From: a virus
Taxonomy: Duplodnaviria; Heunggongvirae; Uroviricota; Caudoviricetes
IMG/VR virus record: IMGVR_UViG_2939127364_000005
Reading direction: 5' to 3' (one strand)
Length of the DNA stretch: 46,106 nt
Positions 1 through 40,591 of the stretch are shown here, one piece after another. A program made the translations under genes and the position numbers. The stretch's first letter is position 1. Every line of letters starts with the position of its first letter. Below the pieces are notes generated by a model. The model ran no database searches. It was not told the origin of the DNA and worked only from the letters and a program-made list of their open reading frames with translations.

Positions 1-585
1 CTATTCGATAATGGGTACTGTTGGCCATTCAATATCCGGTGCAGTTGATGTATCAACACGGTTCAGCAACACCCGATACTTTTTCCAGGCTTCCAGCAAC
101 AAGGTTTCTTCCTCCGTTGCGATCTCCAGATCCACAGCATCCTGAAGCGGCGCTATATGCTCACTGGCTACCTGCATCAGGCTGTTTTTTGTTTCTTCCG
201 CCTCCCGGATCCGGAACAGTTTTTCTGCTTCCGTATCCTTCACCCAGGCTGTGCCGTTCCACTTCTGATATTCCCCTCCCGGCGATAACCAGGTAACATT
301 TTCCGGTAACGGACCGAGTTCAGAAATAAATAACGCGTCGCCGGAAGCCACGTCATAAACCGTTTTACCCCGATGATCTTCAACGAGATGCCACGATGCC
401 TCATCACTGTTGAAAACAGCCACGAAGCCTGCCGGAATATCTGGCGGTGCAATATCGATACTGTTTGCTGGCAGACCTGTATGAGGCGGAATATATGCGT
501 CACCTTCACCAATAAATTCATTAGTTCCGGCCAGCAGATTATAAATTTTTATGGTCCGTGGTTGTTCACTCATTCTGAATGCCAT
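1..585 (-). CDS. tfa: Tail fibre assembly protein Tfa (194 aa), complete; stop codon at 1-3
   Basis: ORF translation matches lambda Tfa along its length as recalled ([24 protein letters not shown]...); sits immediately downstream of stf as in lambda. Confidence 0.9.
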
Positions 586-3500
586 TATGCAAGCCTCACA
601 ATATAGTTAAATGCGATGTTTTTGACGGTGTTTTCCGCGTTACCAGCAGCGTTAACGGTGATGGTATGTCCATGTGAACCAATCGCAACGGAGTGCGTAT
701 GAGCACCAATACCGACAGTATGTGCGTGTGCACCTGCGCTTGCAGCAGTACCCGATACAGAGTGCGTATGAGCGCCTGCAGAAGAAGTGTTAACACTGTA
801 TTTAGAATAATCAGGTGATCCACTTCCCGGAGCACCACTGGAACCACCTGAAACAAATGTCATCGAATGGGTATGTGCACCGGCTGAAGCAGCCGTACCG
901 CTAACACTATGGGTATGTGCACCAGTGTTATTCGTGGATTTAGTGCCGTAATCAAACGATGATGTGGTTTTCGTCCCCAAATCCGTACTGGATGCGCTGG
1001 CGCTGTGGGTGTGCGATTTAATGCCGTCCTGTTCCTGAGACAATACGGCACGACCACTGGCGGGCTTGCCCTTAATCGTCCAGCCACGCATATCAGGAAT
1101 AACGCCTGACGGATAAGCCACTGCAAGTTTCGGGTATGCAGATTTGTCAAAAGTCTGCCCCTGCATCAGGGCATAGCCAGACGGAACGGTATCTGATGGC
1201 CACGGGATTGGTGCGCCGACTGGGTAGCTTTCTGGTGGAAGATTTTTCGAGGTATAAACTTCTGCCCAGTCTTCCTCAAAACCATAACCGTCTCTTGAAG
1301 AACGGTAGAACAGACCACCATTTCTGTAATGCGCCTTCATCTGCAAGGTCCGGCAACTTCCGACTCCGGTATAGAAGTTAACCAGAATATAGCTGTCGCC
1401 AGAGCGGGTGACATTGTAAGCGCCTGATTCGGCATTCCAGGGAACGCCACCATCCGCATCGGCATATGTATCCGTTGCCCTTCTGGCAAAAGCAGCCACA
1501 TGCGCGGCGGTTAAAGTGATATCAGTAGAACCATCAAATGGAACACCGGATATTTTTCTTGCAGTCTGAAGTTTTGTAGCAGTTGCAGCATTACCAGTGG
1601 TGTTCTGATTACCCGTAGTGTTTACACCTGGAAGGTTAATATTTGCAGAACCGTCGAAAACAACTCCACCGATAGATCTTGCCGTCTGCAATTTCGTGGC
1701 TGTACTTGCATTACCATTCAATGAACCAGTTAATCCACCTGTAACAGACAACGGACCTGAAACTGTTCCTCCGGTTGTTGGCAGTGCTCCAATATCTGAT
1801 GGTGTAGGTTTCTGATGTGAGCTATACATCGTATAAACAACACCATAGGTAACGCTGGAAGGCTTACTCGCTGAATATGTTGGCGAGGTATAAACAGAAA
1901 CTGACGCATTTGCAGTACAATCCCAATGGATATTTACACTCGTCGCATAATTGCCAATCTCAACGTAAATATCATATGTATCGCCGGATGTGTTGATCCA
2001 GGCGAAATTCGTTAATCCGACGGCTGTACGCTTCCACAAAGCCCCGGTAATTCCTTTGGGGTTTCCATTGCCTGCTCGTAGAACCAGTTCTGAAATGCCT
2101 GCCTGATGTGGGGAACCGACGTTGTAACCAGCGCCACCAATCAATGCGATGTAAACGATGGAACTCGCCTGTGGCATGGTTACCGTTGCTAATTTGAACC
2201 AACCAGCACCACCGCTGAATGACATTGTTGTTGAGTTAAGCGTACCAATATCTTTCGGCGTCAGTGTTATATCCGCTGAAAGCGCCTTACCATTCACCTT
2301 ACGGGCAGAAGGTACCCGACCATTCGCATTATCATTAGCTGCTTTCACTGCTTTCGGTGTCGCGGCAAGCGTTTCAGATGCGCTGTTGGTTGCACTACTG
2401 AGCTGGACAATTCCTTTTTGTGCTGTCGTAGCGTCCTGTGCGGTGTATTTCCCGTTAGCCAGGTCATACGCGGCCTTAACGGCTTTTGGCGTTGCCGCCT
2501 GTGACTCGGAAGTGCTGTTGGTCGCACTGCTGAGCTGTACTACCCCCTTTTTCGTCGTGCTCGCATCCTCAAGCGCCACAGCGGATGCAATATCCTCTGC
2601 CCGTTTTGCTGCTGTCTCGGCGCGCGTTGCCGCGGATTCCGCCGTACTTTTGCTCTGAGCTGCCGCCGTCGCACTGCCAGCTGCCTCTGTCGCCTTCGTG
2701 GATGCCGTCGTGGCGCTGCCCTTCGCTGCTGACGCTTGTCTGGTCGCCTCATCTTTTGAAGCAGACGCCGATGATGCCGATGACGCCGCCGAACTGGCTG
2801 ACGATGCGGCAGCCGTTTTTGAGGATTCTGCGCTGGTTTCCGACACTTTCGCGTTCGTTTCGGATGTCTTCGCTGCGGAAGCTGACCTCGCTGCTGCCGT
2901 GGCCTGTTCAGTGGCTTCGCCAGCCTTCGTTGTGGCTGTTGAAGCGGATGATGCGGCGCTTTCTGCCGACTTTCCGGCAGCGGTGGCACTGGCTGAGGCC
3001 TGCCCGGCACTTGTTGACGCGGCACTGGCAGACGACGCAGCCGCTGTTTTTGAGCCTGCCGCAGCCGAGGCGCTCTGTCCCGCTGCCGTTTCAGAAGACC
3101 TGGCGTTCGTCTCGGACGTTTTTGCCGCCTTCGCGGAATTTCCTGCCGCCGTTGCCGAGGAAGCTGCACTACTGGCGCTTGATGATGCGTTCGTTTCTGA
3201 TGATTTTGCCGCCTCTTTTGAAGCCGACGCATCTCTGGCTGAGGTGGCAGCTTCTGACGCTTTCGTGGTCGCGGTGGATGCAGAAGTGGCGGCTGATTGT
3301 TGTGACGCTGAAGCATTCGTTTCTGACGTTTTCGCCGCACCGGCACTGGTGGCCGCCGCGCTTTTTGAGGACTCTGCAGCGGCAGCACTTTTTTCCGCTT
3401 CAGTGGCCTTTGTTGATGCCGTTCCTGCGCTGGAAGACGCTGACTGAGCCGACGAAGCGGCCTGTCCGGCTGACGTGCTGGCTGCGCGTGCTGAGCCTGC

Positions 3501-3944
3501 AGCATCAGTCGCATGGGTTGCCGCCTCACGGGCTGATGTGCCGGCATCGCTGGCTGACTTCTTCGCGGCTGCCGTGTTCTGTGCCACCGCGGACGCGTTA
3601 CGCGCCACCTCTTCCACCATCAGTTCAAAACGGCGCAGTGCCTCCGGACGGGCATCATCCTCCGTCATGGCACCGAGAAAATCATTCAGCGTACCGGGTC
3701 GGGAATCTTCATACACGGTGATGGTCCCGGCATGTGACGGCGGGAATCCTTCCACCAACAGAATAACGCTGTACTGACCGTACTCAACGTCCATGCTGTA
3801 ACGCCCGGCTTCATCCGGATTTTCTGAGGCCAGCGTGTTCACCACCACCGTGGTGCTGTTACGTTTTGCTTTCAGCTGGATTGTGCAGTTCTGTACCGGT
3901 TTTCCTGTGCCGTCTTTCAGTACACCTGAAATCTTTACTGCCAT
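585..3944 (-). CDS. stf: Side tail fibre protein, long StfR-like form (about 1119 aa from the ATG at 3944; ORF track begins at a GTG at 3950)
   Basis: N-terminus [20 protein letters not shown] and C-terminus ...[22 protein letters not shown] match lambda Stf as recalled; central Ala/Ser/Thr-rich low-complexity repeats; His-rich GAHTHS repeats near the C-terminus. Confidence 0.85.
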
Positions 3945-3953
3945 ATTCACCCC

Positions 3954-3982
3954 ACAAAAAAGCCCGCCTGAACCGGCGGGCT
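3954..3982 (-). terminator. Candidate rho-independent terminator downstream of lom (8-bp GC-rich stem AGCCCGCC/GGCGGGCT, then a T-run on the minus strand)
   Basis: Hairpin and T-run read directly from sequence between lom stop and stf start. Confidence 0.5.
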
Positions 3983-4008
3983 GTCATAACACTGTGTTAC
4001 CTGGCTAA

Positions 4009-4608
4009 TCAGAATTTATAACCGACACCCACGATGAAACCGTCAGTGCGCCAGTCACCACTGCCGGAACCTTCATAAGCAATATCAATGGCCACGGATT
4101 CGGTCGGGTTAAACTGCACGCCAGCCCCCCACGCCAGAGACGTGTTGCTGTGGCGACCGTCATCACTTCCGGTCAGCACATCGTGCGTTTTCCCCTTGTT
4201 GTCAGTTACGCGGAGATAATCCCCGGAGAAAGTCGACACGCGGCTGTAAGCCACACCCGCCATCGCATACGCGCTGAACCATTCATTCACGCGCACAGAC
4301 GGCCCCGCCATCACGCTGAACCAGCGGTTACGCGCGGAATCTTCATGCCAGCGGGTATCGCTGTAACGGGTAAGCTGGCGATTCTTGTCTCCTGCATAGC
4401 TGAATGACGTCACCATTCCCAGCGTGTCCGTAAACTCATAACGGTATTTCACGTTAATCCCGTTCAGATCATCGCTGCCGGAAACGTTCGTCCGGGCATG
4501 AAGATAGCCCGCGCTCAGCGTGGACTGATGTTCAGACGCCCATGCAGGCGCACCGGATACGGCCAGACAAATGGCTGCGGACAAAATGGCGGCATAAAGT
4601 TTACGCAT
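4009..4608 (-). CDS. lom: Ail/Lom-family outer membrane protein (199 aa), diverged from lambda Lom
   Basis: Signal-peptide-like N-terminus, C-terminal [24 protein letters not shown] identical to the lambda Lom C-terminus as recalled; position between J and stf. Confidence 0.85.
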
Positions 4609-4674
4609 AATTACCTCTCGCTTTTCTGCAATAAAAAAGGCGTCATTTCTGACGCCCGTTCTGGGTTATAAAAT

Positions 4675-6808
<2,134 letters not shown>

Positions 6809-28088: not shown

Positions 28089-28361
28089 ATGGACAATAGC
28101 ACCATTTCTCTACAGGAGTTGCTCGACTGCATTTCCAGGCTTCGGGATGATGTAAATGCCCTTACTGTCGCATTTTCATATCTGGCATTCTCAATTCCCA
28201 AGGAACAAATGCAACCAACACTGGCATCGCTCCAGCTTGAATCACTCAACCCCAAATGGTCCCAGCAACAACAAAATTCTTTCAAGTGGCTGGCGGTATT
28301 ACTGGAAGAAAAATATGCTGGTGAAATTACCATTTCGGCGGAGTCTTCAGAGAACCAGTAA
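28089..28361 (+). CDS. Hypothetical 90-aa protein inside the lysis cassette, opposite orientation to the lysis genes
   Basis: Protein-like translation (MDNSTISLQELLDCISRLRDDVNALTVAFSYLAFSIPKEQ...); GAGAGGA ribosome-binding site about 7 nt upstream of the ATG; overlaps the 3' end of the next minus-strand ORF by about 35 bp. Confidence 0.4.
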   Translation: MDNSTISLQELLDCISRLRDDVNALTVAFSYLAFSIPKEQMQPTLASLQLESLNPKWSQQQQNSFKWLAVLLEEKYAGEITISAESSENQ

Positions 28362-28671
28362 TTCTTCCCGGTAGCTTTCCTTTGTAGGTTATCCACACAT
28401 TCTGCGCCTCTAAAATTATGGGGCGCTTTTCCGGCGACAGCTCATCCCCTTCACATAACCCGGCAGCAACATCCAGGAAGACCTGTCTGATGCTCCTTCT
28501 GGCTGCTGCCTCATAAAACTCCAGCGCGGCACCTTCAACACGGTCCAGCGAGATGTCCAGGTCAAAAATTTCACCGTCAAAGCGTTTTTTGTCCCGTAAC
28601 GCTAAAGTTACCGTAACTTTATTCTCAAAATTGCGGATCCCTTTCACAATCAGTTCATAGTTTTGAGTCAT
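28327..28671 (-). CDS. Hypothetical protein between holin and endolysin (114 aa), possibly YdfR/DUF1327-like
   Basis: No transmembrane segment; sits where E. coli Qin prophage has ydfR between essQ and rrrQ; family assignment by position only. Confidence 0.5.
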   Translation of the reverse strand: MTQNYELIVKGIRNFENKVTVTLALRDKKRFDGEIFDLDISLDRVEGAALEFYEAAARRSIRQVFLDVAAGLCEGDELSPEKRPIILEAQNVWITYKGKLPGRITGSLKTPPKW

Positions 28672-28675
28672 TGAA

Positions 28676-28891
28676 TTACTCTCCCCGTGCAGCCTTACGC
28701 TTGTCTTCTTTAATCTTGAAATAAAGATTTGTCAGATACGTCAGCAGGCCAAATACCAGGCTACCCAGCACACCTATTGCCGCCCACTGTGAGGGCGTGA
28801 CTTTATCGAGCAACTGTAAAAACCAGTATCCCGCACTACCCGCGGATGTTCCGTAGGCAATGCCAGTAGAGATTTTGTCCATTGATTTCAT
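28676..28891 (-). CDS. S: Phage-21-type class II holin (pinholin S21-like, 71 aa) with dual-start motif MKSM
   Basis: [71 protein letters not shown] closely resembles phage 21 S as recalled. Confidence 0.85.
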
Positions 28892-29009
28892 AGCAACGCC
28901 TCCGCAAGTAACGGATTGCGTAGTTCTTATATTGGGAAGGGGAAAAAAGAAGGCCGCAGCGTAACTATCACTGATGAATTCAGGACAGCCAGTGGCTCCG
29001 GCTCAGTTA

Positions 29010-29085
29010 TGGTGCTGGTTAACGGACTTGAACCGCTACCCATTCGCTTACAAGGCGACTGCTCTACCATTGGAGCTAAACCAGC
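29010..29085 (-). tRNA. tRNA gene (76 nt, CCA encoded); anticodon by manual folding is UGU (Thr)
   Basis: Manual cloverleaf: perfect 7-bp acceptor stem GCTGGTT/AACCAGC, D-arm GCTC-CAATGGTA-GAGC, T-loop TTCAAGT, anticodon loop CTTGTAA; one G-A mismatch at the top of the anticodon stem. Confidence 0.65.
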
Positions 29086-29090
29086 ATATT

Positions 29091-29165
29091 TGGCGGGACA
29101 GCGTGGACTCGAACCACGATAAGAAGGTTAACAGCCTTCCGTAATGACCTTTATGCGACTGACCC
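29091..29165 (-). tRNA. tRNA-like gene (75 nt, CCA encoded) with GUU (Asn) anticodon; may be functional or a pseudo-tRNA
   Basis: Anticodon arm GAAGG-CTGTTAA-CCTTC and T-arm CGTGG-TTCGAGT-CCACG are perfect and resemble E. coli tRNA-Asn loops; acceptor stem has one T-T mismatch and the D-stem pairs poorly. Confidence 0.5.
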
Positions 29166-29228
29166 AAACAAAAAAAGCCACCGTTGCAACTTAAGAGTCA
29201 CTAACGGCAGCTTACCTTCTAATTATGG

Positions 29229-29747
29229 CTAAATGGATAATTGCATGTCAAGGCTTTTAACAGCAACATGCTTAACTTTCTCAACACGTTTACGCATTTT
29301 GAAAGCATTTTGCATTGGCTGGTACAAAACAAATAACGACGCTTTCAGGATGTCGTCAATTTCGTTTCTACAGGTTGCCAGTGAAGGTTTTCTCCATCCC
29401 TCGCCACCACGTCCACACATCTTGCGTGGCTTTGCAGTCGCGTGATAGTAGGATGCAATTGCTCGCTTAGATGAACCATGAGCGTAGTAGCTGAGGAGGA
29501 TGCCAAAGGCTTTTTTGTCAATGCACATGACGGAATCGACGACCTGAGAAATCAACATTCCATCATCATCATTACACATTGGCCTTGTCATAACTCTTCC
29601 CGGCTCTACGCTCTCCATGAACTTAGCTATTACGCTGCTCATGCGCTTTTCCAGACGACCTGAATAAACCCATGCGCCCCACAGTTCAAGCCAGCCATTC
29701 AGCCACTCGTGCTGTTCTTTGGTGAGGTTTAGTTCTCTTATGCCCAT
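29229..29747 (-). CDS. Q: Late antiterminator Q, phage 82/21 (QuuD-like) family; 172 aa from the ATG at 29747 (ORF track begins at a GTG at 29804)
   Basis: Motifs WGAWV...CNDDDGMLISQ...LLSYYAHG resemble the E. coli QuuD / Phage_antitermQ family as recalled; lies between ninG and the lysis genes. Confidence 0.65.
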   Translation of the reverse strand: MGIRELNLTKEQHEWLNGWLELWGAWVYSGRLEKRMSSVIAKFMESVEPGRVMTRPMCNDDDGMLISQVVDSVMCIDKKAFGILLSYYAHGSSKRAIASYYHATAKPRKMCGRGGEGWRKPSLATCRNEIDDILKASLFVLYQPMQNAFKMRKRVEKVKHVAVKSLDMQLSI

Positions 29748-33932: not shown

Positions 33933-33964
33933 AATGACTCCTGTTGATAGATCCAGTAATGACC

Positions 33965-34258
33965 TCAGAACTCCATCTGGATTTGTTCAGAACGCTCGGT
34001 TGCCGCCGGGCGTTTTTTATTGGTGAGAATCGCAGCAACTTGTCGCGCCAATCGAGCCATGTCGTCGTCAACGACCCCCCATTCAAGAACAGCAAGCAGC
34101 ATTGAGAACTTTGGAATCCAGTCCCTCTTCCACCTGCTGATCTGCGACTTATCAACGCCCACAGCTTCCGCTGTCTTCTCAGTTCCAAGCATTGCGATTT
34201 TGTTAAGCAACGCACTCTCGATTCGTAGAGCCTCGTTGCGTTTGTTTGCACGAACCAT
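33965..34258 (-). CDS. cII: Transcriptional activator cII (97 aa from MVRANKRNEALRIESALL)
   Basis: Matches lambda cII as recalled. Confidence 0.9.
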   Translation of the reverse strand: MVRANKRNEALRIESALLNKIAMLGTEKTAEAVGVDKSQISRWKRDWIPKFSMLLAVLEWGVVDDDMARLARQVAAILTNKKRPAATERSEQIQMEF

Positions 34259-34337
34259 ATGTAAGTATTTCCTTAGATAACAATTGATTGAATGTATGCA
34301 AATAAATGCATACACCATAGGTGTGGTTTAATTTGAT

Positions 34338-34369
34338 GCCCTTTTTCAGGGCTGGGATGTGTAAGAGCG
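34338..34369 (-). promoter_or_regulatory. nutR: nutR: boxB hairpin GCCCTGAAAAAGGGC (34338-34352) and boxA CGCTCTTAC (34361-34369) on the minus strand
   Basis: Canonical lambda N-utilisation motifs read directly from sequence between cro and cII. Confidence 0.8.
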
Positions 34370-34376
34370 GTGTTAT

Positions 34377-34515
34377 TTATGCTGTTGTTTTTTTGTTACT
34401 CGGGAAGGGCTTTACCTCTTCCGCATAAACGCTTCCATCAGCGTTTATAGTTAAAAAAATCTTTCGGCCTGCATGAATGGCCTTGTTAATCGCGCTTTGA
34501 TATACGCCGAGATCT
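34377..34515 (-). pseudogene. cro: cro, C-terminal part (codons about 21-66), separated from its start and from PR by IS5
   Basis: ...[46 protein letters not shown] matches lambda Cro as recalled; upstream frame runs into IS5. Confidence 0.85.
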
Positions 34516-34519
34516 TTAG

Positions 34520-35714
<1,195 letters not shown>

Positions 35715-35718
35715 TTAG

Positions 35719-35776
35719 CTGTCTTTGTTTGCCCAAAGCGCATTGCATAATCTTTCAGGGTTATGCGTTGTTCCAT
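35719..35776 (-). pseudogene. cro: cro, N-terminal 19 codons (MEQRITLKDYAMRFGQTKT), still attached to PR
   Basis: Reverse complement reads ATGGAACAACGCATAACCCTGAAAGATTATGCAATGCGCTTTGGGCAAACAAAGACAG, ending at the IS5 target duplication. Confidence 0.85.
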
Positions 35777-35800
35777 ACAACCTCCTTAGTACATGCAACT

Positions 35801-35866
35801 ATTATCACCGCTAGAGGTAAAGTAGTCAACACGCACGGTGTTAGATATTTATCCCTTGCGGTGATA
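35801..35866. promoter_or_regulatory. Right operator region: OR1 35803-35819, OR2 35827-35843, OR3 35850-35866, with divergent PR (-10 at 35801-35806, -35 at 35824-35829, minus strand) and PRM (-35 TAGATA near 35842-35847, -10 TAGATT near 35865-35870, plus strand)
   Basis: 17-bp operators TATCACCGCTAGAGGTA, CAACACGCACGGTGTTA, TATCCCTTGCGGTGATA read from sequence; OR2 and OR3 identical to lambda as recalled, OR1 differs at one central position. Confidence 0.8.
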
Positions 35867-35873
35867 GATTTAA

Positions 35874-36590
<717 letters not shown>

Positions 36591-36708
36591 CCACAATACA
36601 ACCTTGTTGTCGCAAAAAGATCGCATATGCGATTGTTTATTAGAAATAGAAATCGCCATATAGGCGAATAGTCGATCTCAGCGCATAACATAAGGAAATC
36701 AATAACAT

Positions 36709-37614
36709 ATGCCAAATTTACCGATGGGCGGATCGCAGGGTGAATTACCCTTAGTACCTACAGTAGAAGTTGTTGCTGATGGCATTCCTATGGGGGTGCT
36801 TAATGATGGAACCCCTTATCTAACTCTTTACGGTTTAGCCAAATTATGTGGCATAGATGAAGCACCTCTTCGAATGTTTACATCTAACTGGGAGACTGAA
36901 AAAAATAAGCCAAGAGGACAAAAAGTAGCTGCATACTTAGCTGAGAAAGGATTTAACAACGTTGACCGACTGTATACCCGCGTCATAAATAGCTCAAACG
37001 TTGAAACACATGCTTATCCTGACTATGTTTGTATGGCTATCCTCCGTTACTACGCTCTAGATGCCACCAATTTTGATAGGTCAGTCGCAATAGGTAATTT
37101 TGTTCGCTTGGCTGAGTACACGCTTAAGCGAATGATTTATGAAAAGTCAAATTACAACCCAAATGCTTCAATAGATATCTCATTCGAGAACTATAGAGCA
37201 AGGATTAAGCTAAACGATCAGATACCGACAACTCATTTTGCAGTATTCAGAGAGATAGCTGACATTGCCATGAACCTGATCGGAGGAGGATTCCCAATGG
37301 ATGACACCACATCTTTGGATGGAAGTGTTGGAATTCACTGGGGAAAGTATTGGACAGCTAATGGGCTATCTGAGAAATTCGGGGAAAGGGTGCAGTACCC
37401 ACATCTATTCCCCGAAAATTACAGGCAGTCAGCTGCAAATAAGCATATAACAGCTTGGATTTATCCTATTGAGGCACTTGGCGTGTTCAGAAAATGGCTA
37501 CACGATAATTACGCAATGGAAAAACTGCCAAATTACCTTGGGAACAAAAAGATTAGTAATGCCTCCGAGCTATTAGAGTCGATAAAAAAACCAGCACTCC
37601 CAAATAAGCATTGA
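36709..37614 (+). CDS. Uncharacterised 301-aa protein at the rexAB position; N-terminal KilA-N/Bro-N-like motif, C-terminal half unassigned; candidate repressor-linked defence gene (possibly BstA-like)
   Basis: Directly downstream of cI on the same strand; motif GTPYLTLYGLAKLCGI resembles KilA-N/Bro-N DNA-binding domains; no similarity to RexA or RexB as recalled; followed by a strong terminator. Confidence 0.6.
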   Translation: MPNLPMGGSQGELPLVPTVEVVADGIPMGVLNDGTPYLTLYGLAKLCGIDEAPLRMFTSNWETEKNKPRGQKVAAYLAEKGFNNVDRLYTRVINSSNVETHAYPDYVCMAILRYYALDATNFDRSVAIGNFVRLAEYTLKRMIYEKSNYNPNASIDISFENYRARIKLNDQIPTTHFAVFREIADIAMNLIGGGFPMDDTTSLDGSVGIHWGKYWTANGLSEKFGERVQYPHLFPENYRQSAANKHITAWIYPIEALGVFRKWLHDNYAMEKLPNYLGNKKISNASELLESIKKPALPNKH

Positions 37615-37626
37615 TCTCCACCACAA

Positions 37627-37652
37627 CCCGGCATCTGCGCCGGGTTTTCTTT
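37627..37652 (+). terminator. Rho-independent terminator after the 301-aa gene (CCCGGC-loop-GCCGGG then TTTTCTTT)
   Basis: Hairpin plus T-run read from sequence. Confidence 0.65.
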
Positions 37653-37802
37653 GCCTAACGCCCCCAAAAAACACATAACCAATTGTATTTATTTTAAAAT
37701 TAATAGATACAACTCGCTAAACATCGCAATTCAGATCTCTCGATCACCTTCCCAATCCACACAACCCTGCAAAAAATAAATCTATATAAAAAACATACAG
37801 AT

Positions 37803-37865
37803 AACCATCTGCGGTGATAAATTATCTCTGGCGGTGTTGACACAGGTACCACTGGCGGTGATACT
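37803..37865 (+). promoter_or_regulatory. Left operator and pL: OL3 37803-37819, OL2 37823-37839, OL1 37847-37863; pL -35 TTGACA 37837-37842, -10 GATACT 37860-37865
   Basis: Operators AACCATCTGCGGTGATA, TATCTCTGGCGGTGTTG, TACCACTGGCGGTGATA read from sequence; 17-bp promoter spacing. Confidence 0.8.
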
Positions 37866-37905
37866 AAGCGCATCAGCAGGACGCACTAACCACCATTGAA
37901 GGTGA

Positions 37906-37936
37906 GGCTCTTAAAAATTTAGCCCTGAAGAAGGGC
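37906..37936 (+). promoter_or_regulatory. nutL: nutL: boxA-like GCTCTTAAAAA and boxB hairpin GCCCTGAAGAAGGGC (37922-37936)
   Basis: Canonical lambda nutL motifs upstream of N. Confidence 0.8.
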
Positions 37937-38046
37937 AGCATTCAAAGCAGAAAGCTTTGAGTAGCGCGAAATGCAGCTGCAAGACAGCAACCGTGGAGAT
38001 AAGCATCACGGCGCGTTACTCAAAGCTAACTGACAGGAGAATCCAG

Positions 38047-38370
38047 ATGGATGCACAAACACGCCGCCGCGAACGTCGCGCAGAGAAACAGGCTCAATGG
38101 AAAGCAGCAAATCCCCTGTTGGTTGGGGTAAGCGCAAAACCAGTTAACCGCCCTATTCTCTCGCTGAATCGCAAACCGAAATCACGAGTAGAAAGCGCAC
38201 TAAATCCGATAGACCTTACAGTGCTGGCTGAATACCACAAACAGATTGAAAGCAACCTGCAACGTATTGAGCGCAAGAATCAGCGCACATGGTACAGCAA
38301 GCCTGGCGAACGCGGCATAACATGCAGTGGACGCCAGAAAATTAAGGGAAAATCGATTCCTCTTACCTAG
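38047..38370 (+). CDS. N: Antitermination protein N (107 aa from MDAQTRRRERRAEKQAQWKAAN)
   Basis: Matches lambda N including the arginine-rich boxB-binding motif. Confidence 0.9.
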   Translation: MDAQTRRRERRAEKQAQWKAANPLLVGVSAKPVNRPILSLNRKPKSRVESALNPIDLTVLAEYHKQIESNLQRIERKNQRTWYSKPGERGITCSGRQKIKGKSIPLT

Positions 38371-38922
38371 TTACTTAGATATTGGCCTTGGCTTTATCTC
38401 AATATTATATGGATCATAGCTGGCAACTAATTCAGTCCAGTAAATATCCTCAATAGGGAATAATATATGCTTCCCGTTCCATCGGGAAAAAGTTTTGTTC
38501 AACACACCAAGCTCAATCAACTCACTAATGTATGGGAATTGTTTTGATGTAACCACATACTTCCTGCCTTCATTAAGGGCTGCGCACAAAACCATAGATT
38601 GCTCTTCTGTAAGGTTTTGAATTACTGATCGCACTTTATCGTTTTGCATCTTAATGCGTTTTCTTAGCTTAAATCGCTTATATCTGGCGCTGGCAATAGC
38701 TGATAATCGATGCACATTAATTGCTAGCGAAAATGCAAGAGCAAAGACGAAAACATGCCACACATGAGGAATACCGATTCTCTCATTAACATATTCAGGC
38801 CAGTTATCTGGGCTTAAAAGCAGAAGTCCAACCCAGATAACGATCATATACATGGTTCTCTCCAGAGGTTCATTACTGAACACTCGTCCGAGAATAACGA
38901 GTGGATCCATTTCTATACTCAT
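38371..38922 (-). CDS. sieB: Superinfection exclusion protein SieB (183 aa from MSIEMDPLV)
   Basis: Matches lambda SieB as recalled; convergent with and abutting N. Confidence 0.85.
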   Translation of the reverse strand: MSIEMDPLVILGRVFSNEPLERTMYMIVIWVGLLLLSPDNWPEYVNERIGIPHVWHVFVFALAFSLAINVHRLSAIASARYKRFKLRKRIKMQNDKVRSVIQNLTEEQSMVLCAALNEGRKYVVTSKQFPYISELIELGVLNKTFSRWNGKHILFPIEDIYWTELVASYDPYNIEIKPRPISK

Positions 38923-39049
38923 CAAACTGTAGGGGTTGTAATAGTTTATCCGATTTCTCGCTGTAGGGGTACACGAGAACCACCGAGCCTGATGTGGTTA
39001 AAAGACAGGCACAATCTTTACTACCGCAATCCACTATTTAAGGTGATAT

Positions 39050-39871: not shown

Positions 39872-39943
39872 GTGCGGTTTTACCGCATACCAATAACGCT
39901 TCACTCGAGGCGTTTTTCGTTATGTATAAATAAGGAGCACACC

Positions 39944-40108
39944 ATGCAATATGCCATTGCAGGGTGGCCTGTTGCTGGCTGCCCTTCCGAATCTTTACTT
40001 GAACGAATCACCCGTAAATTACGTGACGGATGGAAACGCCTTATCGACATACTTAATCAGCCAGGAGTCCCAAAGAATGGATCAAACACTTATGGCTATC
40101 CAGACTAA
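39944..40108 (+). CDS. cIII: cIII (54 aa from MQYAIAGWPVAG), FtsH inhibitor
   Basis: [54 protein letters not shown] matches lambda cIII as recalled. Confidence 0.9.
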   Translation: MQYAIAGWPVAGCPSESLLERITRKLRDGWKRLIDILNQPGVPKNGSNTYGYPD

Positions 40109-40220: not shown

Positions 40221-40591
40221 CCCCCTTTCCTGTTTTCCTAATCAGCCTGGCATTTCGCGGGCGATATTTTCACAGCTATTTCAGGAGTTCAGCCATGAAC
40301 GCTTATTACATTCAGGATCGTCTTGAGGCTCAGAGCTGGGCGCGTCACTACCAGCAGATCGCCCGTGAAGAGAAAGAGGCAGAACTGGCAGACGACATGG
40401 AAAAAGGCCTGCCCCAGCACCTGTTTGAATCGCTATGCATCGATCATTTGCAACGCCACGGGGCCAGCAAAAAAGCCATTACCCGTGCGTTTGATGACGA
40501 TGTTGAGTTTCAGGAGCGCATGGCAGAACACATCCGGTACATGGTTGAAACCATTGCTCACCATCAGGTTGATATTGATTCAGAGGTATAA
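40175..40591 (+). CDS. gam: Gam (138 aa), RecBCD inhibitor
   Basis: Matches lambda Gam as recalled. Confidence 0.9.

Follow-up and report, generated by a model that had tools for sequence, protein, structure and literature searches.

A phage 21-type tRNA-Asn–tRNA-Thr pair in the late region of a lambda-like Escherichia coli prophage and its proposed relation to tRNA-cleaving defense systems

The 46,106-nucleotide stretch of viral DNA analyzed here (the window) carries two tandem tRNA genes, one for tRNA-Asn(GUU), one for tRNA-Thr(UGU), just ahead of its lysis genes. The pair is a known module of the phage 21-type late regulatory region. We consider it probable that its tRNA-Thr replaces a host tRNA that is cleaved by the Old nuclease of phage P2, and that its tRNA-Asn likely serves in a similar way. 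The role of the tRNA-Thr was published in 2025, and the feature as such is ordinary, as it has been annotated automatically in hundreds of genomes and has been on record for years in phage 21, Sf6, and SfI. The remaining interest lies with the Asn partner, which has an anticodon from the set of targeted tRNAs, an altered cleavage region, and a record of traveling with tRNA-Thr(UGU) in unrelated lineages. This partner thus provides a cheap and concrete hypothesis on how temperate phages fight each other's abortive-infection systems.

The tRNA genes and their setting in the late region

When run over the whole window, ARAGORN returned exactly two tRNAs, with the coordinates, lengths, and anticodons that the initial annotation had derived by manual folding: a 76-nt tRNA-Thr(UGU) at positions 29010 to 29085 and a 75-nt tRNA-Asn(GUU) at positions 29091 to 29165, with the proposed gap of 5 nt between them. 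The Rfam tRNA model (RF00005) likewise accepted both, with the same boundaries and anticodons. It gave tRNA-Thr 61.5 bits (E-value 5e-11) and tRNA-Asn 47.3 bits (E-value 4e-07), where the gathering score is 29 and the E-values refer to the whole window; both tRNAs thus lie far beyond chance. Both are on the minus strand, which the initial annotation did not specify; thus, tRNA-Asn is transcribed first and tRNA-Thr second. The anticodon loops read CUUGUAA in tRNA-Thr and CUGUUAA in tRNA-Asn, and the T loops TTCAAGT and TTCGAGT, with U33 and a purine at position 37 in both tRNAs. The cloverleaf of tRNA-Asn bears out its earlier description as imperfect, with a mismatch in the acceptor stem (U4·U69) and a weak D stem, as well as the statement that its anticodon and T arms are perfect. 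The tRNA-Thr, which had been called well formed, does have an otherwise good cloverleaf, but one mismatch, G27·A43, sits at the top of its anticodon stem. Taken together, the identity and anatomy of the pair are established with high confidence. A search for a third or degenerate tRNA in the conserved 118 nt that follow tRNA-Thr, in which ARAGORN was run with its thresholds lowered to 80% and Rfam was scanned by E-value, yielded none beyond these two.

The pair belongs to a lambda-like E. coli prophage located at the lambda attachment site adjoining ybhC. Across most of its length this prophage is 98 to 99% identical to a prophage of E. coli BS15R-A; the two diverge in the immunity region and at the tail-fiber end. 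The late genes are encoded on the minus strand, and Pfam matches to Phage_antitermQ and to the P21 holin S flank the tRNAs, in agreement with the earlier placement of the pair between Q and the holin gene. The features to which we refer are the following.

29229–29747, minus strand: Q late-gene antiterminator, 172 aa (ORF; Pfam PF06530 Phage_antitermQ, E-value 1.3e-25)
29222–29251, minus strand: predicted late promoter PR', with −35 TTGACA, an 18-nt spacer, and −10 CATAAT (promoter scan, 11/12 matches)
29166–29213, minus strand: tR', intrinsic terminator of the ~46-nt late leader (homology and fold)
29091–29165, minus strand: tRNA-Asn(GUU), 75 nt, encoded CCA, discriminator G73 (ARAGORN; Rfam, 47.3 bits)
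29086–29090, minus strand: spacer AAUAU, 5 nt, between tRNA-Asn and tRNA-Thr
29010–29085, minus strand: tRNA-Thr(UGU), 76 nt, encoded CCA (ARAGORN; Rfam, 61.5 bits)
28943–29002, minus strand: conserved long imperfect hairpin (29002–28953), then UUCUUUUUU (fold −37.8 kcal/mol, z −3.1)
28676–28891, minus strand: S21 pinholin/antiholin, 71 aa, dual start MKSM (Pfam PF04971 “Bacteriophage P21 holin S”, E-value 8.7e-36)
40294–40591, plus strand: gam, encoding a RecBCD inhibitor, given for context only (Pfam PF06064 Gam, E-value 1.1e-64)

The Q gene is identical to one in E. coli BS15R-A that PGAP annotates as “antiterminator Q family protein.” In alignments, the predicted PR', which overlaps the 3' end of Q, corresponds to the annotated PR' and Q-binding elements (QBE) of phage 21 and to the “P R'” of Sf6; by this homology it would act as the late promoter, and late transcription would start at position 29215. 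Two candidate 8-nt repeats resembling Q-binding elements, ATTATCCA and TTTAGCCA, lie between the two hexamers at about positions 29242 to 29227 and belong to the Sf6 rather than to the phage 21 type. The terminator tR' folds into a hairpin followed by U7 (−21.3 kcal/mol, z −4.2). It is the same as the annotated phage 21 terminator save for one base past the T run, and its U run stops 3 to 4 nt upstream of tRNA-Asn. Beyond the tRNAs, the long hairpin is kept across relatives with two compensated pairs. The U run after it is present in the S21-type relatives and absent in the Sf6-type relatives. To judge from its predicted fold, the hairpin together with UUCUUUUUU looks like a putative second terminator, one that would separate the tRNAs from the lysis genes. 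The S21 gene, which aligns with S21-71/S21-68 of phage 21, is the first protein gene of the late transcript, and a DUF1327 gene, a lysozyme gene, and a spanin gene follow downstream. An attB-complementing function of the tRNAs was considered and rejected, as the prophage resides at the lambda site next to ybhC and has its integrase at the opposite end, and the tRNAs are complete genes in its interior.

In the most plausible scheme, RNA polymerase would start at PR' and terminate at tR', about 46 nt on, unless Q is present; Q would let it continue into tRNA-Asn, tRNA-Thr, the S21 lysis cassette, and the morphogenesis genes. Given that the U run of tR' ends 3 to 4 nt before tRNA-Asn, with no promoter in this gap, production of the tRNAs should require Q, a dependence that we infer by homology, with the reservation that the Q-binding repeats are of the Sf6 type and the characterized ones are those of phage 21. 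Host enzymes would presumably cut the tRNAs out of the transcript, with RNase P acting at the 5' ends and 3' trimming proceeding to the encoded CCA.

Distribution of the pair and its relatives

A 361-nt region spanning this locus matches 96 phage records, including those of phage 21, Sf6, SfI, BTP1, and SPN9CC, many of which have both tRNAs annotated, and 367 of the 5426 complete E. coli genomes carry the Asn gene. The SfI genome paper described tandem tRNA genes with anticodons GUU and UGU downstream of Q, and listed them also for Sf6, ST64T, PS3, and p21 (PMC3636060). The pair is therefore already known, and the earlier remark that tRNA genes just after Q are a familiar feature of lambdoid late transcripts is well founded (the pair is annotated in phage 21, Sf6, SfI, and BTP1).

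From tR' through to the start of S21, the window and phage 21 (GenBank OL657228) align nearly base for base; the phage 21 record annotates PR', the Q-binding elements, the transcription start, tR', tRNA-Asn, and tRNA-Thr. The two phages share tR', all 76 of 76 nucleotides of tRNA-Thr, the spacer region, the hairpin and U run after tRNA-Thr, and S21. They differ by one base in tRNA-Asn, where the window has U11C, and in the Q-binding repeats, which read ATTGAGCA and AATGAGCA in phage 21, whereas the window combines ATTATCCA and TTTAGCCA with a Q 3' end of the Sf6 type. A DUF1327/YdfR gene lies between S and R in the window. Sf6 and its relatives SfI, ST64T, BTP1, and SPN9CC carry the tRNA pair downstream of gene 59 (Q) in the same order as the window, and this group has the same type of Q and PR' and the same tR'. 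However, Sf6 encodes a lambda-type S holin and lacks the U run after the post-Thr hairpin, while the window has S21 and the U run. Moreover, the virions of the Sf6 group are P22-like or SfV-like, whereas the window is a prophage of the lambda type that occupies the lambda attachment site. The slot between Q/PR' and the first late genes is also occupied in Stx phages of the 933W type, by the ileZ-argN-argO tRNAs, a case cited in PMC3636060. These read the rare codons AUA and AGA/AGG, for which codon supplementation is the usual rationale; the slot is the same as that of the window pair, but the tRNA identities are different.

The viral comparison covered 117 IMG/VR loci anchored on the 3' end of tRNA-Thr. 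Among these, 58 have AATAT as the spacer and 50 have AACAT, and the pair directly follows the T run (junction TTTTTTATTT/GGGTCAG) of at least four leader/terminator types. Judged from these alignments, the pair behaves as a mobile mosaic module that always takes the same slot. The invariable abutment on a terminator U run, whatever the leader type, and the conserved hairpin that follows the tRNAs would also suit a role as RNA-processing punctuation, in which cuts by RNase P and RNase E detach the leader and set the 5' end and the stability of the late lysis mRNA. Yet many Q-regulated late operons, such as that of lambda, work without tRNAs. We regard punctuation as very improbable as the main role of the pair, as it leaves unexplained the strictly conserved anticodons, discriminator bases, and CCA ends, the recurrence of Thr(UGU) with Asn(GUU) in unrelated arrangements, and the published decoding function of the tRNA-Thr (PMC12445682).

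Species-representative genomes were scanned with the Thr anticodon arm. The enterobacterial copies have the order Asn then Thr, while all five Pseudomonas/gamma-proteobacterial genome loci (5/5) have Thr(UGU), 3 nt, and then Asn(GUU). In a second viral scan for this Pseudomonas-type clade, Asn(GUU) was found beside or near Thr(UGU) in 12 of 15 loci. The Pseudomonas-type tRNA-Thr shares positions 8 to 46 with that of the window; the acceptor and T stems differ, and these differences are fully compensated between the enterobacterial and Pseudomonas-type copies. The Pseudomonas-type Asn genes are quite different in sequence, and all of them keep G30-C40, G31-C39, and the loop CUGUUAA. The Pseudomonas locus L162 has the pair in the same promoter-terminator-tRNA-holin slot and reads NinB, NinG, an unrelated ORF of 193 aa, a promoter-like site, a terminator, Thr, Asn, and later a lambda-S-type holin. 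BLASTP detected no similarity between the window Q and the 193-aa protein, nor did the latter have a Pfam match; by position only, it is a putative Q analogue.

tRNA-Thr, P2 Old, and codon demand

The Old nuclease of P2 kills cells that express Gam, which is its published trigger (PMC12445682; bioRxiv 10.64898/2026.07.10.737580), and does so by cutting the host tRNA-ThrU between positions 28 and 29 and between positions 40 and 41, at a paired CNG motif (PMC12445682). The tRNAThr21 of phage 21 protects against P2-OLD and rescues ACA decoding; its resistance to cleavage was traced to a shorter anticodon stem combined with C28U/G42A, and since the C28U/G42A change alone left ThrU unprotected, the shortened stem is needed as well (PMC12445682). 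The window tRNA-Thr is identical to tRNAThr21 (OL657228, 39671–39746) and has 71% identity with host thrU. Its anticodon arm, GUCGC/GCGAA, with the G27·A43 mismatch, U28, and A42, replaces the ACUGA/UCAGU of host thrU, and both published resistance features are thus present. The window itself also encodes Gam, the trigger of Old. The tRNA-Thr gene is functional and its role is published, in that the identical sequence decodes ACA and resists P2 Old. From these two properties it follows that tRNA-Thr would replace a host tRNA lost to a competitor's abortive-infection system, namely, the tRNA-ThrU that P2 Old would destroy when a lambda-type Gam is made. Other phage-encoded Thr(UGU) tRNAs have been set against P2 Old, those of T4, Bas32, HK446, and phage 21, all with the anticodon of the window tRNA. 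A 2026 preprint reports that viral Thr(UGU), including that of the lambdoid HK446, counters Old for some phages, and that lambda was not rescued by a single viral Thr(UGU) (bioRxiv 10.64898/2026.07.10.737580).

The initial annotation had asked which rare codons the two tRNAs might supplement. Codons were counted in our own ORF calls, with the window and 50 kb of E. coli K-12 (the host sample) treated alike, and are given below per 1000 codons.

ACA, all genes: window 14.4; host sample 5.5
ACA, early and other genes: window 17.1; host sample 5.5
ACA, late genes: window 12.2; host sample 5.5
ACG, late genes: window 29.0; host 13.0
ACA + ACG, late genes: window 41.2; host sample 18.5
AAC + AAU (Asn), all genes: window 42.5; host sample 36.7

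Relative to the 50-kb K-12 sample, ACA is thus enriched 2.6-fold, and ACA plus ACG in the late genes 2.2-fold, with no enrichment of the Asn codons. These counts make supplementation plausible for tRNA-Thr but not for tRNA-Asn, which answers the question in part. If supplementation were the whole explanation, the tRNAs would only boost codons favored by the phage and would have no tie to tRNA-cleaving defenses. The single-copy nature of thrU and the low abundance of its tRNA speak in favor of this, as does the Thr codon bias. On the other hand, the E. coli host has four asn genes, the usage of Asn codons in the window is close to that of the host sample, and ACA is more frequent in the non-late genes than in the late genes, which are coexpressed with the tRNAs. 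The SfI authors reported the same ACA bias and no enrichment of Asn codons, and described the purpose of the tRNA-Asn as “not clear” (PMC3636060). With a nuclease-resistance phenotype demonstrated for the identical Thr sequence (PMC12445682), we consider it unlikely that supplementation alone accounts for the pair. As regards tRNA-Thr, supplementation is compatible with the replacement of Old-cleaved tRNA that we favor; the same tRNA would also help to meet the high ACA/ACG demand of the phage.

tRNA-Asn: family constraint, the window copy, and a possible counter-defense role

The window tRNA-Asn has 61% identity with host asnT. GUU, G73, and CCA are kept, while the acceptor stem is otherwise unlike that of asnT (G1-C72 versus U1-A72). 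The identity set of E. coli AsnRS consists of G34-U35-U36 and the discriminator G73, and the window tRNA has both the GUU anticodon and G73. Within the family, 102 of 129 loci carry the canonical allele (U11), which shares with E. coli glyT a D stem made up of G-C, U-A, A-U, and U·U. An “alt” version, which has diverged strongly, retains U4·U69 together with the rest of the acceptor stem; its D, anticodon, and T stems have all changed and are perfectly paired. Three loci have a compensated change from A28-U42 to C28-G42. Among 22 distinct members, 12 of 21 pairs have changed on both sides and 91.3% of cells are paired, a result that none of 500 shuffles reached. In the 117 viral loci, the nucleotide diversity of tRNA-Asn (0.008) is similar to that of tR' (0.007) and tRNA-Thr (0.013) and five times below that of the adjacent hairpin (0.041); GUU, G73, and CCA are kept in about 109 of these loci. 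The comparison suggests that the imperfections of tRNA-Asn are mostly conserved family traits rather than signs of decay, and it is highly likely that the members of this family are functional tRNAs.

The window copy is a less favorable case. It differs from the phage 21 and Sf6 genes at position 11 only, and there U11C breaks U11-A24, so that a third D-stem pair is lost in comparison with the canonical allele: G10-C25 and A12-U23 alone are standard, with C11·A24 and U13·U22 unpaired. This exact allele occurs in 2 of 367 E. coli genomes and in 1 of 117 viral loci. Its minimum-energy fold is not a cloverleaf, whereas the canonical allele folds into one. The fold is not decisive on competence, however, because host asnT and glyT also miss the full cloverleaf. 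As the rare U11C breaks an additional D-stem pair, the competence of this particular copy is uncertain, and it may be impaired.

These observations bear on the notion that tRNA-Asn is a nonfunctional passenger (a pseudogene in decay, or simply a structured spacer that separates tR' from tRNA-Thr), be it throughout the family or only as the U11C copy. Its acceptor mismatch, weak D stem, and Rfam score below that of tRNA-Thr would fit such a passenger, and so would the further broken pair and non-cloverleaf fold of the window allele and the lack of Asn codon demand. Scattered singleton alleles with damaged anticodons, CCA ends, or stems, seen in relatives, point in the same direction. A family-wide passenger is, however, difficult to reconcile with a diversity as low as that of the proven tRNA-Thr, with the compensatory stem changes and the fully paired alt version, with a U4·U69 mismatch that is conserved between diverged versions and a D stem that serves in functional glyT, with the retained anticodon, discriminator, and CCA, or with the Asn(GUU) that accompanies Thr(UGU) in the separate Pseudomonas-type clade. 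Decay across the family is thus unlikely, and we give the passenger explanation as a whole little credence.

For a functional tRNA-Asn, the published targets of defense nucleases offer a candidate role. The AriB nuclease of PARIS cuts host Lys(UUU), Thr(UGU), and, less well, Asn(GUU) between positions 40 and 41, beside U36AAU39, and full escape from PARIS required resistant T5 versions of all three tRNAs (PMC12409363). Host Asn(GUU) is also a substrate of P2-OLD, cleaved more slowly than ThrU (PMC12445682). In a second study, the most depleted targets of Old were Thr(UGU), Gly(UCC), fMet, Val, and Pro, and Asn was not listed (bioRxiv 10.64898/2026.07.10.737580). Positions 36 to 41 read UAAGCG in the window tRNA-Thr and UAACCU in the window tRNA-Asn, compared with UAAUCA and UAAUCC in the respective host tRNAs. 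Both window tRNAs have therefore lost the U39 that host thrU and asnT keep (UAAG in tRNA-Thr and UAAC in tRNA-Asn), and the Thr and Asn tRNAs of T5 are without U39 as well. Likewise, the paired C28NG30/C40NG42 motif is present in host thrU and asnT and absent in both window tRNAs. The window tRNAs are thus changed at the same places as the published resistant phage tRNAs, position 39 and the stem at 28 to 30 and 40 to 42. The window shares the Thr and Asn anticodons of the T5 Lys/Thr/Asn set that acts against AriB but has no tRNA-Lys(UUU). It is also unlike T5 in kind, being a temperate phage whose two tRNAs lie under a presumably Q-dependent late promoter, while those of T5 belong to an early array of many tRNAs.

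On this basis, tRNA-Asn would be a charged, working, and nuclease-resistant substitute for host tRNA-Asn(GUU), a secondary target of both AriB and P2 Old. By analogy with the published cases, we put this counter-defense role at close to an even chance. A broader version holds that Asn(GUU) and Thr(UGU) form a dedicated cassette against OLD-family TOPRIM tRNases (P2 Old, PARIS AriB, and relatives), which has spread, with its genes in either order, among lambdoid prophages ranging from Enterobacteriaceae to Pseudomonas, where it takes the late-leader slot under Q control; within the cassette, tRNA-Asn would itself be resistant and be needed together with tRNA-Thr for escape. The shared anticodons with the cleaved host tRNAs, the changes in the cleavage region, and the recurrent pairing of Thr with Asn are in its favor, and we hold it tentatively, as somewhat short of an even chance. 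As the phage lacks tRNA-Lys(UUU), the main target of AriB, the pair alone could not defeat the characterized PARIS. Furthermore, Asn and Thr(UGU) are both tRNAs that phages often carry, so part of their joint occurrence may have no common function behind it. Two observations count against resistance of tRNA-Asn: its anticodon stem has a perfect 5 bp, whereas the resistance of tRNA-Thr to Old needed a shortened stem, and the three C28-G42 variants recreate the paired CNG motif. The omission of Asn from the second study's list of most depleted Old targets likewise speaks against the substitute role. In the literature searched, we found no published test of a lambdoid tRNA-Asn, and searches on BTP1 tRNA expression and on Thr/Asn, prophage, and antiterminator returned nothing useful.

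Other tRNAs occasionally appear beside the pair in the slot, namely, Gly(UCC), tRNAs with the anticodon CAU, Tyr(GUA), Ser(UGA), and Arg(UCU). Gly(UCC) and fMet(CAU) are on the published list of Old targets (bioRxiv 10.64898/2026.07.10.737580). The CAU tRNAs in the slot share the anticodon of fMet and may or may not be initiators. One relative, L093, has an array of CAU, Arg(UCU), Gly(UCC), and Thr tRNAs in the same slot.

tRNA-Asn position 11 and related tRNA arrangements

The tRNA-Asn of the window carries C at position 11 (window 29155). The base there is T in phage 21, in Sf6, and in ~95% of relatives, and the U11−A24 pair of the D-stem is consequently lost in the window copy. This exact allele was found in 2 of the 367 E. 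coli genomes having the gene and in 1 of 117 viral loci. Because the 11−24 pair is C−G in both the Pseudomonas-type versions of tRNA-Asn and a strongly diverged version of the family, C11 could represent one half of a compensatory switch.

A sister clade of tRNA-Thr(UGU) is found in Pseudomonas/gamma-proteobacterial genome contigs (L151, L154, L158, L162, and L164) and in viral contigs (L166 to L180). The D and anticodon arms of these tRNAs are identical to those of the window tRNA-Thr, while the acceptor and T stems differ in a compensated manner. In this clade tRNA-Asn(GUU) lies 3 nt after tRNA-Thr(UGU), whereas the window has the reverse order, Asn and then Thr. The Thr-Asn pair of L162 is preceded by a promoter-like site and a terminator, and is flanked by a block consisting of NinG plus an unknown ORF and by a lambda-S-type holin.

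The slot 5′ of the same tRNA-Thr gene can also house tRNAs other than Asn, as in L093 and L159, and mixed tRNA arrays were found at two further loci.

tRNA content of four loci related to the window module
L093 (viral contig): CAU-anticodon tRNA, Arg(UCU), and glyT-like Gly(UCC), in place of Asn
L159 (Citrobacter braakii): CAU-anticodon tRNA, in place of Asn
L169 and L171: tRNA arrays Asn-Tyr(GUA)-Thr-Ser(UGA)

One published set of targets of the P2 tRNase Old includes Gly(UCC) and fMet(CAU); the CAU tRNAs of L093 and L159 may be initiator, elongator Met, or Ile2 species.

The hairpin after tRNA-Thr and the lysis region

A conserved structure directly follows the tRNA-Thr gene, and the lysis genes beyond it include an insertion.

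Features downstream of tRNA-Thr in the window
28943-29002, minus strand: long imperfect hairpin, directly 3′ of tRNA-Thr
28327-28671, minus strand: DUF1327/YdfR-family gene, between the S21 holin and lysozyme genes
28089-28361, plus strand: ORF antisense to and overlapping the DUF1327/YdfR-family gene

The hairpin accompanies the tRNA module over mosaic boundaries (phage 21, Sf6, and 113 viral loci); it is five times as diverse in nucleotide sequence as the tRNAs, and two of its pairs display compensatory change. A U run follows the hairpin in the S21-type relatives, including the window, and thus forms with it a second terminator-like site, located downstream of the tRNAs and ahead of the lysis genes; the hairpin of Sf6-type relatives has no U run. 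The S and R genes of phage 21 lie next to each other, while in the window the DUF1327/YdfR-family gene separates holin from lysozyme.

Threonine codon use

Among all called window ORFs, ACA is more enriched in early and other genes (17.1 per 1,000 codons, or 32% of those for Thr) than in late genes (12.2 per 1,000; 16%), in which ACG is abundant (29.0 per 1,000). The codon best read by the Q-dependent tRNA-Thr therefore peaks in genes expressed before the expected synthesis of this tRNA.

Mosaic boundaries and other RNA elements

Most of the window is 98 to 99% identical to the prophage of E. coli BS15R-A, the exceptions being 1-6800 (tail-fibre end) and 33957-38927 (immunity region), which are unaligned or only ~90% identical. 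Judged from this alignment, the edges of both segments are typical lambdoid mosaic boundaries. Besides the two tRNAs, three window matches exceed the Rfam gathering score.

Further Rfam matches in the window
44-242, minus strand: IS009, 221.7 bits, tail-fibre end of the prophage
5627-5749, plus strand: isrC, 150.4 bits, tail-fibre end of the prophage
39931-39989, plus strand: lambda cIII thermoregulator, 88.5 bits, beginning of cIII
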